Virus record (IMG/VR): IMGVR_UViG_2534681675_000018
Span: 1 to 11,212 of that record
DNA length: 11,212 nucleotides
Direction: 5' to 3' (one strand)
Origin: a virus
Lineage: Duplodnaviria > Heunggongvirae > Uroviricota > Caudoviricetes
Position 1 is the first letter of the stretch; each line of letters opens with the position of its first letter. The notes beneath the pieces were generated by a model that saw only the letters and a list, made by a program, of their open reading frames with translations, did not search any database and was not told the DNA's origin. The translations under genes and the position numbers were made by a program. Below, in pieces: positions 6,043-11,212 of this stretch.

Positions 6043-6555
6043 TCAGCCAAGCCCGAGCGCGGAACGGATACGGTCAGGCACAATGTCCTTGCCGTCCTTC
6101 CGGTAGATGTGGTTCAACAGGTCGATTTCCCACAGCGGGCGATCGTTAACGCTCAGCTTGTAGTAGGTGTTTTTGACAGCGTAAGTGTGTGATGTGGCTT
6201 CGCCCTGTTTGGCTTCCCCCATATCAATTTCCGTCACACGTCCGCGCATCTCGATTTCATACAGATCGCTTTCTGCATCGGTGTAGTATTCACCCGCAAA
6301 ACGCAGCAGCGTGCCGTCAATCGCGCCGCCATATTTAAGGAACAGCGCACGAACAGCTCCCCCCATGACAAAACTCGCATCAAGCGCGGAGTCGTCCAGA
6401 CCGAGATCAATACTTACCGCCCCCATCATGCCACCACCACGATAGCTGTCGGTTTTGCGCGTCAGTTTGGGCGGCGTGACGGATGTCACTTTACCCACTT
6501 CGTTTTCACCATCCACAAACAACGTAAAAAAGCGAAGATGTTTTGGTACAGCCAT
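6043..6555 (-). CDS. FII: Tail tube protein (P2 FII-like)
   Basis: 170 aa immediately downstream of the sheath gene. Sheath stop and tube start overlap (TGATG) at 6553..6557. Size and position match the contractile-tail tube protein. Confidence 0.88.
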   Translation of the reverse strand: MAVPKHLRFFTLFVDGENEVGKVTSVTPPKLTRKTDSYRGGGMMGAVSIDLGLDDSALDASFVMGGAVRALFLKYGGAIDGTLLRFAGEYYTDAESDLYEIEMRGRVTEIDMGEAKQGEATSHTYAVKNTYYKLSVNDRPLWEIDLLNHIYRKDGKDIVPDRIRSALGLG

Positions 6556-7739
6556 CAGGCACCTCCCAGCACCGCAAATGCGGGACCAAAGAATTCATCA
6601 GTAAACGTCTGGTAAAGCTCCATGTCTTCCAGCGGGGGAACAGGCGTATATTTGTAGCGAATACGCACACGTCCCTGACGTAAATTCGTGGTGCCGTTAT
6701 CCACCACGTCATACCAGCACTCCGCACCAATCAGTTTCCCGGCAGTAACCAGCGAATCCAGTTTTGCCCTGATGGCGCTGATAACATCCTTCACGTTCGC
6801 AGGTGTCAGTGGACTGTCGATGGTTTCAAACTGCGCTTCCGCAATTGAATCAGCCAGCACCTGTGCGGTTCGGGTATACACCTCAAAGATGTAGGCGTTC
6901 GTTTCCGGTGTGCGGTTGCCCCAGAAGCGGAACCCGTTGCGACGAATAATGGTCGTGATTTCTTTGTTGTTGAGGCTGTTGGCATCGCTGTCTTCGGCCT
7001 GCAACGACCAGAACACATGCCTGGACATCCCCAGCACATTTTTAACCGGAACGTTGGACAGCGATTTGTGCCAGCCCTGTTCATGGTCAATGTACGCACG
7101 AAGGCCGCACGCATAGGCAGGCGCGGGGAACGTTTCGTTTTCGCCACTTTTCGGGTTGTAGGCGATGAAGTCCGGCCATAAGAGCATCACTTCACGTTCG
7201 TTGAATTTCTGGCGGTAGGTAATCGCTTCAGCCATCGTGTTACAGCCGTGACATGAGGCATACACAAATGCGCGCAGTTTACCCGCAATCACGCACAGGG
7301 ATTTTGTCACCGCCTCCGTGTCCAGCTCCGGCGCGGCCAGAATACGCGGACGGTATCCGATGCTTTCATCCTGCTCTGCAACAAGCAGCGCATACATCCC
7401 CGTATAGCTGCCGTCATCCTCAGAACCACCGATAACCAGTTGATCCTGCGTCTTTTCGTCTTCTTCTTTGTGTTCAGCCACGCGAACGACGATCACCTTT
7501 GTGCTCACCTGGTCTGCGATGGCCTTAAGCGCACGATAAAGCGTCCCCGTTGTCCCGCATTTCCCCAGCACGTCATTGACGCGGGTCAGCAGTGTGGGCT
7601 TGTTCAGCGGGAACAGCTTCGCGTCCGCATCATCCGCCGTTGCCACGATACCGATAACGCTGGAATCAACATCGTTAATCGCTGTTACCAGGTCGGTATT
7701 TTCCGTAACACGGGCACCATGAAAACGAGTTTCACTCAT
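6555..7739 (-). CDS. FI: Contractile tail sheath protein (P2 FI-like)
   Basis: 394 aa, the size of P2 FI; first gene of the sheath-tube-chaperone-tape measure order; AAGGGG SD upstream of the ATG at 7739. Confidence 0.9.
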   Translation of the reverse strand: MSETRFHGARVTENTDLVTAINDVDSSVIGIVATADDADAKLFPLNKPTLLTRVNDVLGKCGTTGTLYRALKAIADQVSTKVIVVRVAEHKEEDEKTQDQLVIGGSEDDGSYTGMYALLVAEQDESIGYRPRILAAPELDTEAVTKSLCVIAGKLRAFVYASCHGCNTMAEAITYRQKFNEREVMLLWPDFIAYNPKSGENETFPAPAYACGLRAYIDHEQGWHKSLSNVPVKNVLGMSRHVFWSLQAEDSDANSLNNKEITTIIRRNGFRFWGNRTPETNAYIFEVYTRTAQVLADSIAEAQFETIDSPLTPANVKDVISAIRAKLDSLVTAGKLIGAECWYDVVDNGTTNLRQGRVRIRYKYTPVPPLEDMELYQTFTDEFFGPAFAVLGGA

Positions 7740-7896
7740 AGCTTCAGCCCCTTGTATCCGTTAAATGATTCAGCAACAATCATCACCCACCACGCGCGTA
7801 ATCTCACCCCTGCGCTATTCTCCCGTCACGGCGACAACAAAAAGCAGTAACCCACTCCGCACGCACATGCGACCATGCCGCACAGGGAGGGAACAG

Positions 7897-9006
7897 ATGA
7901 CCGACACCACCATGCAATTGCTCAGTCAGGGCACAGACCCCGTGAAAATGCCGGATTTTGATATTCTCGCGGAGGGTAAAACGTTGTCAGGCGTGGCAGA
8001 GCGCCTGATGAGCCTGTCACTGACCGACAACCGGGGATTTGAGGCGGACCAGCTCACCATCACGCTGGATGATGCGGATGGTCAGTTGCAGCTACCGCTA
8101 CGGGGCGCGCGCCTGACGGTTCTCATTGGCTGGAAGGGAGAACCGCTGACAGAAAAAGGCACTTACATTGTTGATGAAATCGCTCACGAAGGACCGCCGG
8201 ACAGGCTGACTGTTTCAGCCAGAAGCGCAGATTTTCGGGATGAATTTAACGTTAAACGTGAGGTGTCCTGGCATGATGTGACCATTGAGCGTGTGGTATC
8301 CGCCATCGCTCATCGGTATGGTCTGAAACCGCAAATCAGCGAAATGCTGATGGATATCGAAATCGACCACGCCGACCAGACCGAAGAAAGCGACATGTCC
8401 TTCCTTACGCGCATGGCGGAAATGCTGGGCGCAATCACCACGGTAAAAAGCGGCAATCTGTTATTCATCATGCCAGGTGGTGGCGTGAACGCACAGGGCC
8501 AGCCGTTGCCCTCGTTCGCCATTACACGCAGCAGCGGCGATCGCCATCAGTTCCGTATTGCTGACCGCGAGGCTTATACGGGGGTACGCGCCTACTGGCT
8601 TGATCTTAATTACGGGAAAAAGAAAAAAGTCAGCGTAAAACGCCGTAAACCGCCAAAACCCAAAAAGGAGAAAAGCAGCAGCCGTGAAGGTGATTATATG
8701 GAAGGCGCGGAAGGCAATGTGTTTGTGTTACGCAAGACTTATCAGAACGAGCAGGCAGCAAGACGCGCAGCGGCGGCAAAGTGGCAGCAACTACAACGCG
8801 GAGCCGCAGCGTTCTCCATCACGCTGGCGCGTGGACGTGCAGAACTCTACCCCGAAATGCATGGCACGGTAACAGGATTTAAAAGCGAGATTGATAATCA
8901 GGACTGGATCATTGCAAAAGCCGAGCACACCATTGATAACAGTGGCTTTACCACGCAGCTTGAGCTTGAAGCAAAAATCCCGGAATGGATAGCAGAAACA
9001 GAGTGA
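7897..9006 (+). CDS. D: P2 gpD-like tail protein (late control gene D family)
   Basis: Start chosen at ATG 7897 (MTDTTMQLLSQGTDPVKMPDFDILAEGKTL...) because it has a strong SD AGGGAGG 6 nt upstream. The upstream part of the track ORF (7765..7896) is low-complexity and not protein-like. About 369 aa, the size of gpD, and followed directly by ogr as in P2. Confidence 0.85.
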   Translation: MTDTTMQLLSQGTDPVKMPDFDILAEGKTLSGVAERLMSLSLTDNRGFEADQLTITLDDADGQLQLPLRGARLTVLIGWKGEPLTEKGTYIVDEIAHEGPPDRLTVSARSADFRDEFNVKREVSWHDVTIERVVSAIAHRYGLKPQISEMLMDIEIDHADQTEESDMSFLTRMAEMLGAITTVKSGNLLFIMPGGGVNAQGQPLPSFAITRSSGDRHQFRIADREAYTGVRAYWLDLNYGKKKKVSVKRRKPPKPKKEKSSSREGDYMEGAEGNVFVLRKTYQNEQAARRAAAAKWQQLQRGAAAFSITLARGRAELYPEMHGTVTGFKSEIDNQDWIIAKAEHTIDNSGFTTQLELEAKIPEWIAETE

Positions 9007-9048
9007 GCAACTTAGAATAGCGGCAGCACCACGTTAAGGGAGGTCGCT

Positions 9049-9309
9049 ATGTTCCGTTGTCCGCTTTGTGGCGCATCTGCCCGTATCCGCACCAGTCGTC
9101 CGGAAAATGATTCAAACACCGTGCGGCAAAAGTATTACCAGTGTAACAATCTGGAATGCGGCGTATGCTTCTCAACACTGGAAGCTTTCCATAAATTCAC
9201 ATCGAAACATGCCTCCGGCGTTCACTCTTCAGAAGGTATCCCGTGGCATGAGCTGCCAGCTTCACACAGGGGAAACAATCAGATGAGCTTGCCTTTATCT
9301 CAGAATTAA
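9049..9309 (+). CDS. ogr: Ogr/Delta-family zinc-finger late transcription activator
   Basis: MFRCPLCGASARIRTSR...YYQCNNLECGVCF... has the C-x2-C-x22-C-x4-C arrangement and the MFxCPLC N-terminus of P2 Ogr. SD AAGGGAGG 5 nt upstream. Confidence 0.85.
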   Translation: MFRCPLCGASARIRTSRPENDSNTVRQKYYQCNNLECGVCFSTLEAFHKFTSKHASGVHSSEGIPWHELPASHRGNNQMSLPLSQN

Positions 9310-9318
9310 CAGGCAGAA

Positions 9319-9347
9319 TTGCCGGAGTAACAAAAAAGCGATAGATT
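9319..9347 (+). promoter_or_regulatory. Candidate sigma70 promoter for the Hok-like toxin transcript
   Basis: TTGCCG - 17 bp - TAGATT immediately after the ogr stop. The predicted transcript 5' end (about 9352..9356, GCGCGGGUGCC) would give a roughly 400-nt RNA ending at the 9720..9744 hairpin, the size class of hok mRNAs. Confidence 0.3.
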
Positions 9348-9369
9348 ACGCGCGGGTGCCTTTCGGCTG

Positions 9370-9633
9370 ATGGTCGGAGGGAATACCCGAAGGCCGGATG
9401 TGGAAAGGCCCCGGAAAACATTTCTGTTTAACCGAGGCCCTAACCGCATTACCTTGACAAGTGAAAGGTTAGCGCCTCTCCGGAAAAGGAGCAAGTGCTA
9501 TGTCGCAAAAATCGCTTACGGCCATCACGTTCTGCGTGACGGCAATCCTCATCATCTGGATGCTGCATGGTTCGCTGTGCGAAATACGGATGAGCTTCTG
9601 GGGAGCGGAGTTTGCGGCGTTCTTACAGTGTAA
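9370..9633 (+). CDS. Possible mok-like overlapping reading frame (modulator of toxin translation)
   Basis: Open frame starting upstream of the toxin ORF, overlapping almost all of it and ending 7 nt before its stop, the same geometry as mok/hok. Protein is low-complexity, so it may only serve translational coupling. Real start uncertain (ATG 9370 or GTG 9400). Confidence 0.3.
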   Translation: MVGGNTRRPDVERPRKTFLFNRGPNRITLTSERLAPLRKRSKCYVAKIAYGHHVLRDGNPHHLDAAWFAVRNTDELLGSGVCGVLTV

Positions 9634-9640
9634 GCAGTAA
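9500..9640 (+). CDS. hok: Hok/Gef-family type I toxin (46 aa small membrane protein)
   Basis: Not in the ORF track (below 60 aa). ATG 9500 with SD AAGGAG 8 nt upstream; TAA at 9638..9640. Protein MSQKSLTAITFCVTAILIIWMLHGSLCEIRMSFWGAEFAAFLQCKQ has an N-terminal hydrophobic helix with C-V-T-A-I and C-terminal SLCEIR...E.AAF, matching Hok (...KSLCEIRYRDGHREVAAF...). Confidence 0.65.
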   Translation: MSQKSLTAITFCVTAILIIWMLHGSLCEIRMSFWGAEFAAFLQCKQ

Positions 9641-9719
9641 GGAAACCGCGACGGGGGAGCAATCCCCCGTCAATCGGTTGCCAGGGTATGGTCGAAGTGG
9701 CACCCAAATTTAAATTGAG

Positions 9720-9744
9720 GCCCACCAGTAAGAGTGGTGGGTTT
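9720..9744 (+). terminator. Weak hairpin/terminator at the 3' end of the toxin transcript
   Basis: CCCACCA gtaagag TGGTGGG followed by TTT; flanked by palindromic AAATTTAAATT-type repeats. Confidence 0.3.
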
Positions 9745-9775
9745 AACGCTTATTTAAATTTGAAAGGAACTCTTT

Positions 9776-10078
9776 ATGAGTGAAATGGTATTTTGTCGCG
9801 GATGCGGCAAGGAAATACATAAAGATGCCACATCCTGCCCCAATTGTGGAGCACCTCAAAGAACAGCAAGTTCAAAAAGCAGAATGACAGCCGCACTACT
9901 GGCTTTCTTTTTAGGTGGTCTTGGTGCACACAAATTTTATTTAGGTAAAGTGGGGCAAGGATTCCTTTACCTTATTTTTGCTGGACATTCATTCCGGCAA
10001 TCGTGGCATTTATTGAGTTTTTTATCTATCTATGCACCTCTGATGAAGACTTTGCCCGCAAATATGGCTAATGCCTAG
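9776..10078 (+). CDS. Zinc-ribbon / TM2-domain membrane protein, with apparently frameshifted C-terminus
   Basis: N-terminal CRGCG...CPNCG zinc ribbon, then LLAFFLGGLGAHKFYLGK (TM2-domain-like first helix and GAH+FY motif). After the T5 run at 9975..9979 the -1 frame encodes a clean second helix and acidic tail (CWTFIPAIVAFIEFFIYLCTSDEDFARKYG, stop 10069..10071), whereas the in-frame continuation (AGHSFRQSWHLLSFLSIYAPLMKTLPANMANA) is not helix-like. SD AAAGGA 7 nt upstream of the ATG. Confidence 0.7.
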   Translation: MSEMVFCRGCGKEIHKDATSCPNCGAPQRTASSKSRMTAALLAFFLGGLGAHKFYLGKVGQGFLYLIFAGHSFRQSWHLLSFLSIYAPLMKTLPANMANA

Positions 10079-10097
10079 TGGGCGAATCAGAATGACA

Positions 10098-10131
10098 AAC
10101 CCGCAGCATAAAAACTGCGGGTTTTCTTTTT
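10098..10131 (+). terminator. Rho-independent terminator downstream of the TM2 gene
   Basis: AAACCCGCAG cataaaaa CTGCGGGTTT followed by TCTTTTT: GC-rich 7-bp stem (extendable by A-T pairs) plus a U-run. Confidence 0.75.
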
Positions 10132-10155
10132 GTCACCCTCACAAATGAGGGTAAC
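10132..10155. promoter_or_regulatory. Near-perfect palindrome (possible operator or second terminator hairpin)
   Basis: GTCACCCTCA caaa TGAGGGTAAC: 10-bp arms matching 9/10, 4-bp spacer, directly after the terminator U-run and upstream of the GATC dyad. Confidence 0.3.
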
Positions 10156-10175
10156 ACCACTCATAAGTAATAGGC

Positions 10176-10229
10176 ATAACAGATCGATGCAATAAATCCG
10201 ATCGATAAAAACGATCGATTTGTTATCAT
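10176..10229. promoter_or_regulatory. Dyad-symmetric element with three GATC (Dam) sites overlapping a -10-like hexamer; putative methylation-sensitive operator/promoter of the com-like operon
   Basis: GATC at 10182..10185, 10200..10203 and 10213..10216, each within GATCGAT. Outer arms ATAACAGATCGAT (10176..10188) and ATCGATTTGTTAT (10214..10226) are inverted repeats (12/13), with the symmetry centre on the middle GATC. TATCAT -10-like hexamer at 10224..10229 overlaps the right arm; com-like start codon is about 35 nt downstream. Confidence 0.45.
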
Positions 10230-10263
10230 ATCGGCAGCAGTAACCACACAAGAGGTGCCGCAA

Positions 10264-10461
10264 ATGACGCAAAATGTACGATGCAAAAATTGCAACAAAC
10301 TACTTGCCCGCGCCTCATTTCACTACATTGAAATAAAATGTCCGCGCTGCAAAACACTTAACCAGATAACGAGAGCCATCGAGCACCCCACACACATGAG
10401 GAGTTATGACCGTGGGGATCGCAATCCAGCACCAACCAGCACATACACCGGAACACACTAA
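10264..10461 (+). CDS. com: Com-like zinc-finger translational regulator
   Basis: MTQNVRCKNCNKLLARASFHYIEIKCPRCKTLNQITRAIEHPT... closely parallels Mu Com as I recall it (MKSIRCKNCNKLLF...HIEIRCPRCK...EHPT), including the four-Cys zinc finger. ATG 10264 preferred over the track's GTG 10255 (SD AGAGG 8 nt upstream). The 3' end overlaps the methyltransferase start by 56 nt, as com overlaps mom. Confidence 0.75.
   Translation: MTQNVRCKNCNKLLARASFHYIEIKCPRCKTLNQITRAIEHPTHMRSYDRGDRNPAPTSTYTGTH
10386..10417 (+). promoter_or_regulatory. Predicted RNA stem-loop sequestering the methyltransferase SD and start codon
   Basis: CCCCAC (10386..10391) pairs with GTGGGG (10412..10417). The 20-nt loop contains GAGGAG (10398..10403) and the ATG at 10406; a fourth GATC sits at 10417..10420. 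Analogous to the translation-inhibition stem of the Mu mom mRNA that Com relieves. Confidence 0.35.
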
Positions 10462-11212
10462 GGTTTATCAGACTGACAATGCCACGCTCTGTCGTGGGAA
10501 TGCGCTGGAAATATTGCCGCTGATTGAGCCAGAAAGCATTGATGCCTTAATCACTGACCCGCCTTACAGTTCGGGTGCGACACACAAGGCCGGACGCACC
10601 AACCAAGGCAGCCATGCAAAATATCTGAACGGCGAGAACCTTCACCGCTTTGATGGGTTCGCGGGTGAAAACATGGACGCCCGTTCGTGGGCTTACTGGA
10701 CACAATTATGGATGGCACAGGCACACCGCGCAGTCAGGCCGGGCGGTTATGCCCTGGTATTTACTGACTGGCGACAACTACCAGCTTTAACCGATGCGTT
10801 TCAGGCCAGCGGCTTTACATGGCGCGGCATCATTGCGTGGAACAAGGGGAGGGGGTCACGAACACCCCATACGGGGTATTTCAGGCATCAGTGCGAATAC
10901 ATCGTCTGGGGCAGCAAAGGCCATTTAGATAAATCGCCTTCGGGGCCGTTCGACGGCTGCATGACGTACCCGGTTATCCCGTCAAAGAAAATGCACCCGA
11001 CCGGAAAACCAGAAGAACTAATGGCGGAACTGGTCAGGACTGTGAATAGTGGCGGAACAGTCCTTGATCCTTTTATGGGGTCAGGGACAACGGGTGTGGC
11101 TGCACTGAAAGCAGGGCGAAAATTTATTGGTATAGAAACCAGTGATCATTATTTTGAGGTAGCAGCGCAGCGGCTTCGGGGGACTATTACCACAACCATT
11201 TCGGCTACATAA
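10406..11212 (+). CDS. DNA methyltransferase, beta-class amino-methyltransferase (N6-adenine or N4-cytosine; DPPY motif)
   Basis: 268 aa with catalytic motif IV LITDPPYSSG near the N-terminus and AdoMet-binding motif I (LDPFMGSGTTGVAALKAGRKFIGIE) near the C-terminus. This motif order defines the beta group. Start at ATG 10406 or GTG 10412; stop TAA is the last three bases of the window. No restriction endonuclease partner in the window. Confidence 0.9.
   Translation: MTVGIAIQHQPAHTPEHTKVYQTDNATLCRGNALEILPLIEPESIDALITDPPYSSGATHKAGRTNQGSHAKYLNGENLHRFDGFAGENMDARSWAYWTQLWMAQAHRAVRPGGYALVFTDWRQLPALTDAFQASGFTWRGIIAWNKGRGSRTPHTGYFRHQCEYIVWGSKGHLDKSPSGPFDGCMTYPVIPSKKMHPTGKPEELMAELVRTVNSGGTVLDPFMGSGTTGVAALKAGRKFIGIETSDHYFEVAAQRLRGTITTTISAT

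Follow-up and report, generated by a model that had tools for sequence, protein, structure and literature searches.

Genomic setting of the TM2 gene

The stretch of DNA analysed here (the window; 11,212 nt) forms the right arm of a P2-like prophage of E. coli. Its early part carries, in order, tail fibre and assembly genes, a Hin/Cin-type recombinase, gpU, tape measure, tube and sheath, while the order at the right end is gpD, ogr, hok, a zinc-ribbon/TM2 gene, a com-like gene, a DNA methyltransferase gene and the host raiA. The TM2 gene follows a Shine–Dalgarno-like motif and is read, as it stands, as an ORF that passes through a homopolymer of five T residues (Table 1). On re-reading of the window, the coordinates that the earlier note gave for this ORF, for the T run and for the alternative frame were all correct, as was the peptide quoted there.

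Table 1. Features of the window considered in the text (nt positions of the window; residue numbers are those of the frameshifted ORF)
Feature	Position	Strand	Remarks
Tail tube ORF	6043–6555	+	170 aa, intact
gpD ORF, as called mechanically	7765–9006		413 aa
Hok/Gef-family type I toxin ORF	9500–9640	+	46 aa
TM2 accessory cassette (moron)	9696–10094 (approximate)	+	~390 bp; absent from the P2-like relatives L118–L120
Hairpin CCCACCA-gtaagag-TGGTGGG, then TTT	9721–9741	+	Upstream edge of the cassette; absent from relatives without the TM2 gene
Shine–Dalgarno-like AAGGA	9764–9768	+	7 nt before the ATG at 9776; predicted from the sequence
Frameshifted ORF	9776–10078	+	100 aa, ATG start
Residues 1–68 of the frameshifted ORF			Native: zinc ribbon (C7, C10, C21, C24), TM helix 1, conserved GAHKFYLGK loop
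Residues 69–100 of the frameshifted ORF			Out-of-frame sequence
T5 homopolymer, site of the one-T deletion	9975–9979	+	T6 in every other copy found outside Logan assemblies
Ancestral frame, −1 relative to the ORF	9979–10071	+	Rest of TM helix 2 and acidic tail, CWTFIPAIVAFIEFFIYLCTSDEDFARKYG; stop TAA at 10069–10071
Second T6 run of the same TM2 gene	10018–10023	+	Loss of one T from this run yields product P0025 (three short Logan contigs)
Intrinsic terminator	10097–10134 (strong part 10097–10124)	+	10-bp stem, 8-nt loop, T-rich tail; SNP 10108A in the loop
Inverted repeat with promoter-like site	10198–10229		CGATCGAT...ATCGATCG; just upstream of the Com-like ORF
Com-like zinc-finger ORF	10264–10461	+	65 aa
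N6/N4 DNA methyltransferase	10406–11212	+	Start overlapped by the Com-like ORF by 56 nt

The TM2 gene is carried on a small cassette between hok and an intrinsic terminator. In three IMG/VR relatives the end of hok runs straight into this terminator (L118:4050–4180, L119:222–350 and L120:2325–2455), and over 10095–10132 they are 100 % identical to the window, including the A at 10108. In phages P88 and Chuche the terminator alone was matched, in P88 at positions 396–432 of the query. The G+C content is 0.41 at 9900–10199 against 0.53–0.57 in gpD, which agrees with the remark of the earlier note that the gene is AT-richer than the tail genes. A low-G+C unit of about 390 bp between hok and the terminator, present or absent among relatives with conserved flanks and of deviant base composition, is like the morons of other phages. 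Morons are also characterized by a promoter and a terminator of their own; the cassette has a clear terminator, whereas a consensus scan found no sigma-70 promoter upstream of the TM2 gene.

Several neighbouring features may be recorded in their own right. The Hok/Gef-family ORF matches NCBIfam HokA with E = 2e-8, which is below the cut-off of that model, and a search of the whole window with Rfam at gathering thresholds returned no family, hence no Sok, hok-mRNA or other RNA. The Com-like ORF corresponds to the RefSeq ‘Com family DNA-binding transcriptional regulator’, and its overlap with the start of the methyltransferase gene recalls com/mom of Mu. Homologues of gpD are called at 369 aa, and the first 44 codons of the longer ORF in the window are probably untranslated.

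Products of the two reading frames

The protein obtained by restoring one T to the run matches the TM2 domain of Pfam (PF05154; 51 profile positions, gathering cut-off 27.9 bits) with 68.6 bits over positions 2–51, whereas the product encoded by the window as it stands scores 56.6 bits and covers positions 2–40 only. A full-length match to the domain is found only after repair of the frame. The zinc ribbon scores 24.1 bits against PF13240 (Zn_Ribbon_1), just below the cut-off of 25, and its four cysteines (C7, C10, C21 and C24, in a CxxC...CxxC arrangement) are invariant in alignment A1. Beyond residue 55, the best 19-residue Kyte–Doolittle window falls from 2.31 in the repaired protein to 1.03 in the window product, and the second TM helix is therefore lost. 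Two TM helices separated by a short conserved loop, the defining arrangement of the TM2 domain, are found in the repaired (ancestral) form and not in the window product. The earlier note had claimed that the second TM helix is lost in the annotated frame and completed in the −1 frame, and both hydropathy and Pfam coverage bear this out. In an AlphaFold model of the intact form, of modest confidence (mean pLDDT 65, pTM 0.31), a small beta zinc ribbon is followed by helices at residues 36–55, 59–87 and 90–97; as modelled helix 2 comprises residues 59–87, the change of frame at residue 69 is placed by the model inside it.

The missing part of the protein lies in the −1 frame. In two alignments the family ends in the consensus FCWTFIPxxIAFIEFIIYLCxSDExFARKYG, and the four cysteines and the GAHKFYLGK loop are invariant or nearly so in two alignments as well. 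As judged by this comparison, the match between the peptide translated from 9979 to the stop (Table 1) and the conserved C-terminus of the family is far beyond chance. In a collection of 5.8 billion proteins, 1567 clusters of homologues were found; those listed are mostly of 98–100 aa and cover the repaired protein in full, at 65–99 % identity. With the 100-aa window product as the lead against GTDB species representatives, the tblastn match ends at residue 68 for the majority of the 80 loci obtained. Because the matches stop exactly at the residue at which the frame changes, and because the TM2 domain is complete after repair, the ORF is read as frameshifted. Neither homologues that share the annotated C-terminus nor a repaired protein without TM2 similarity, the two observations that the earlier note had set against its own reading, came to light in these searches: most tblastn matches stop at residue 68 and the match to PF05154 is full length.

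Length of the T run in relatives

Region 9700–10150 was compared by megablast with 5,426 complete E. coli genomes. The TM2 gene is covered in 95 records, the best matches spanning 452 bases against 451 in the query and carrying the RefSeq annotation ‘TM2 domain-containing protein’. In a base-by-base alignment the nearest complete-genome relative, NZ_CP027366 (L001), has TTTTTT at the T5 site of the window, and its gene product, the 98-aa protein WP_001519189.1, is identical to residues 1–68 of the window ORF followed by the tail encoded in the −1 frame. Together with the Pfam result, this relative bears out the claim that the zinc-ribbon/TM2 gene is frameshifted at the T5 run and that a sixth T would restore a protein of 98 aa. 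The T run is the only gap on the side of the window; positions 6324–11212 otherwise differ solely by the SNP at 10108, and over 7.5 kb there is no other indel in the window. The other gap of the alignment is an annotated frameshift of L001 itself, at a run of C residues within the tail tube gene.

The tail tube gene of NZ_CP027366 has lost one base of a C6 run (L001:2660; window 6359) and is annotated ‘frameshifted’; the corresponding gene of the window is intact (Table 1).

WP_001519189.1, which also goes under the names ‘zinc-ribbon domain and TM2 domain-containing protein’, ‘NINE protein’ and ‘YozV’ (PF05154, COG2314), is thus encoded by DNA identical to that of the window bar one T, and at the same locus, after ogr and hok in a P2-like prophage beside raiA. 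Unlike it, the window copy is frameshifted at codon 69 and has neither TM helix 2 nor the conserved tail at the C-terminus.

The six-T form is uniform among the copies that were found outside Logan assemblies. A 66-nt probe across the tract matched 95 records in 94 complete E. coli genomes; 40 of the 40 matches listed span 67 bases and none of the 95 falls in the band of at least 99 % identity, and the T5 allele is therefore absent from the complete E. coli genomes. A gapped exact pattern gave matches of 38 nt, that is T6, in IMG/VR (7 of 7) and in metagenomes (5 of 5), so that frameshifted alleles number 0 among 107 copies (95 from E. coli, 7 from IMG/VR and 5 from metagenomes). An exact-pattern scan of GTDB species representatives for the tract with its flanks gave no match, the representatives being without this allele.

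In more distant homologues the run varies in length. Among 65 GTDB species-level homologues with the conserved motif, the homologous T run is of 2 to 7 residues, following synonymous choice among the Ile/Leu-Phe-Cys/Phe codons, and 63 of the 65 are read in one frame through to the conserved C-terminus. The two others are shortened, one by a contig end (L053) and the other as a 60-aa fragment in Sodalis (L074). Comparison of T-run length in homologues, a check that the earlier note had proposed, accordingly gave six residues in all non-Logan copies of the gene itself and 2 to 7 in species-level homologues.

The T5 allele in public assemblies

Sequencing errors are classically found at homopolymers, and the T5 site is such a run. 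It could be supposed that the true DNA has six T residues and that the fifth-to-sixth difference arose in sequencing or assembly. The Logan assemblies of SRA runs bear on this: the exact 100-aa frameshifted product is encoded on 9 contigs, the exact intact product on at least 1000. Comparison with the window divides the T5 contigs into three groups, namely the lineage of the window itself, a possible independent event and probable read errors.

To the lineage of the window belong L009 (SRR387479, with the same contig in two more samples), L010 (SRR23828422), and L013 and L014 (SRR12406483 and SRR12406485). The four contigs come from different SRA runs; over 9650–11212 their sequence is exactly that of the window, with no indel. 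L009, L013 and L014 are 100 % identical to it over the whole overlap, L010 has one mismatch in 9,756 bases, and the indel-free match extends up to 9.7 kb. A fifth contig, L011 (SRR070451), also has T5 and matches the window, but with one extra G deletion. All five combine T5 with the SNP 10108A, the private marker of this lineage, and the runs with window-matching T5 contigs are dated roughly 2010 to 2023. Other genes of the T5 prophage in the compared stretch are intact ORFs of the expected length.

The prophages of L009 and L010 are 99.91 % identical, whereas the host flanks, from bamD to clpB, reach only 97.3 %. An IS4-family remnant (L009:10313–11092) lies between raiA and bamD in L009, L011, L013 and L014 and is absent from L010 and L012. 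A near-identical prophage within flanks that differ by 2.7 % and by the IS4 remnant indicates that the T5 prophage resides in at least two different host chromosomes. The runs with the window haplotype could in principle represent repeat sequencing of just two strains.

The haplotype of L012 (SRR24058790), which also has T5, is a divergent one: over 1561 nt it shows 34 mismatches and 0 gaps, and L012 is possibly an independent T5 event. The remaining contigs are of another kind. L015, L016 and L017 have T5 together with further single-base deletions in T or G runs, and their T5 calls are probably read errors. Likewise, the product of a deletion in the second T6 run (P0025) is encoded on L110, L111 and L112, of which L110 and L112 carry further homopolymer deletions, and L015, L017, L110 and L112 all derive from runs SRR22784784 to SRR22784923.

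That T5, or a deletion in the second T6 run, also occurs on contigs with other homopolymer deletions (L015, L017, L110, L112, L016 and L011) would favour an error in the window, as would the C-run frameshift of L001. However, the window haplotype recurs with T5 in several independent runs, on four contigs without any indel; the prophage sits between flanks 2.7 % apart; and over 7.5 kb no second homopolymer of the window has an indel, so that an error at this one run is improbable. Because it is reproduced across unrelated runs, in two host backgrounds and without any other window indel relative to L001, the T5 of the window is, on the strength of these alignments, a genuine, heritable one-base deletion and not an assembly error.

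Some details of the contigs stand apart from this question. In L015, L017, L110, L112, L016 and L011, single bases are missing from homopolymers of T, G or C close to the gene (examples are 10127, 10149, 10851, 10134 and 9653), a pattern that points to a homopolymer-error-prone sequencing chemistry. Frameshifted ‘proteins’ in collections derived from Logan should accordingly be checked for homopolymer errors. The SNP 10108A was considered as a pointer to the T6 ancestor and rejected, being the allele of relatives without the TM2 gene. A query across the raiA–IS4–bamD junction is matched over 80 % or more of its length in 336 complete E. coli genomes. The contigs of the window lineage all break at 1457 or 1584, beside a Resolvase/HTH_7 recombinase gene and tail-fibre assembly ORFs (1457–1584 and 1534–2133), which would fit an invertible tail-fibre segment.

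Phase variation and programmed frameshifting

A heritable change of length in a homopolymer may also be a switch. If the T tract were a slipped-strand contingency locus, the TM2 gene would be turned on and off by gain and loss of a T. Frameshifts do recur at homopolymers of this gene, at T5, at the second T6 run and at a run of four G residues (P0002; the G4 run is deduced from the protein), and T5 is found on at least one divergent haplotype without other indels (L012). However, the tract has only 6 nt, and 6 nt is short for a contingency tract. OFF alleles are found in 0 of 95 complete E. coli records, 0 of 7 IMG/VR copies and 0 of 5 metagenome copies, and the T5 product on some 9 Logan contigs against at least 1000 for the intact one; the remaining OFF calls in Logan mostly coincide with other homopolymer errors. 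The T5 lineage itself is uniformly T5 (5 of 5 contigs), no T6 copy with 10108A having been found, and the homologous tract is T6 in just 16 of the 65 species-level homologues, being usually T3–T4. On these counts phase variation at the T tract is very unlikely.

Alternatively, the T5 allele could still yield the full-length protein, by a programmed −1 ribosomal frameshift or by transcriptional slippage on the U run. As read from the sequence, a P-site tRNA-Phe paired with UUU at 9977–9979 could re-pair with UUU at 9976–9978 and translation would then continue in the correct frame. Against a programmed event, no homologue is encoded in two frames: the 63 complete species-level copies and all T6 copies are single-frame. 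The zero-frame heptamer is U AUU UUU and not X XXY YYZ; the RNA from 9980 to 10075 (96 nt) folds no better than shuffled sequence (z = −1.39); and the sole local hairpin begins right at the end of the run, without the spacer of 5–9 nt that would be expected. The T5 allele is, moreover, derived and rare. As for transcriptional slippage, the run is of five U residues only, too few for slippage to be efficient. Programmed recoding of either kind can hardly be credited here, although a low level of unprogrammed tRNA-Phe slippage from UUU to UUU would still be conceivable in the T5 allele, with no sign of its being functional.

Given that no more than 16 of 65 homologues have T6 at the tract, that the complete copies are single-frame, and that neither a slippery heptamer nor an RNA structure is found, phase variation and programmed frameshifting at the T5 tract are not supported.

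Probable inactivation of an accessory gene by loss of one T

The evidence makes it highly probable that the window records a real, heritable T6-to-T5 deletion in an accessory gene of a P2-like E. coli prophage, with slippage as its most likely cause and loss of function as its expected effect. The intact gene would encode a 98-aa inner-membrane protein with an N-terminal four-cysteine zinc ribbon, a TM2 helical hairpin and a short acidic tail. Replication slippage most likely removed one T from the run of six. Within helix 2, at codon 69, the deletion changes the frame, and the T5 allele accordingly codes for the zinc ribbon and helix 1, the 30 conserved C-terminal residues being replaced by 32 unrelated, weakly hydrophobic ones, and the T5 gene would thus be a pseudogene or, at best, the source of a crippled single-pass product. 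Of the four causes that the earlier note had listed, the inactivating mutation stands, whereas sequencing error, phase variation and a −1 translational slip are disfavoured by the reproducibility between runs, the allele counts and the reading frames of the homologues, respectively.

The three runs could also be taken together: T6 at 9975, T6 at 10018 and G4 at about 9951 would jointly allow the gene to be switched off by mutation at low frequency, with selection in lysogens repeatedly favouring loss of the membrane protein and with the T5 phage spreading because the loss is beneficial or because the truncated product is newly active. Such a switch is given a very small probability; it is retained because T5 is present in at least two host backgrounds and once on the indel-free divergent haplotype of L012.

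Taken as a deletion by slippage, the frameshift is an ordinary one-T inactivation of an already annotated accessory gene, with nothing distinctive about it. It is like the homopolymer frameshift pseudogenes of bacterial genomes, where a lineage is fixed for the loss of one base from a short mononucleotide run. In annotation, the 100-aa ORF is to be marked as a frameshifted pseudogene of a 98-aa TM2 domain-containing protein and not as a new protein. With the natural T5 allele, an isogenic knockout is already at hand for functional tests of the zinc-ribbon/TM2 family.

The zinc-ribbon/TM2 family and the intact protein

The family is very widespread in Enterobacterales, as fixed chromosomal genes in Yersinia and Enterobacter and as cargo of P2-like prophages in E. 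coli. The chromosomal genes of Yersinia and Enterobacter encode proteins of 98 aa that are 76–79 % identical to that of the prophage and have the same architecture and conserved C-terminus; unlike the gene of the window, they are single and intact, and they occupy fixed chromosomal sites and are not prophage cargo. The Yersinia orthologue lies between a DUF2502 gene and ihfA–pheT, the Enterobacter orthologue between cpxP and fieF (L102–L109). A paralogue of 71 % identity is located directly after ogr in another P2-like E. coli prophage. Since the Yersinia and Enterobacter homologues are single genes at fixed chromosomal sites, the prophage copies look like captured host genes. The proximity of the Enterobacter orthologue to cpxP is a hint of a link to envelope stress.

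Because R29, K34 and R36 precede helix 1, the positive-inside rule would place the zinc ribbon and the acidic tail of the intact protein in the cytoplasm and the GAHKFYLGK loop in the periplasm. Searches with the TM2 protein for a function gave little: PADLOC-DB, searched for anti-phage defence, returned 0 families at E ≤ 1, NCBIfam returned 0 matches, and PHROGs returned matches only to families of unknown function. A sequence search of the PDB found no related solved structure, only generic zinc-ribbon similarities with E > 0.08. In the searchable literature the TM2 domain is described only as a helical hairpin of unknown function, and a search on the TM2 domain, prophage or phage, and PF05154 found no functional study of bacterial members. 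Relatives of the protein are encoded in 19 of 50,697 phage records by protein search, none of them functionally annotated. As a best guess, held with low confidence, the intact protein may be a membrane factor that is expressed by the prophage and whose gene was co-opted from an enterobacterial chromosome.

At the DNA level, a search of the phage collection found the exact TM2 gene in no sequenced phage; the matches were the terminator in P88 and Chuche and a stretch in Streptococcus satellite phages. In the latter, the TM2 core (9896–10016) is 72 % identical at the DNA level, over 121 nt, to hypothetical genes in the Streptococcus agalactiae satellite phages Javan12, 13, 24, 43 and 50, a nucleotide similarity that is unusually far-reaching for so short a membrane domain.
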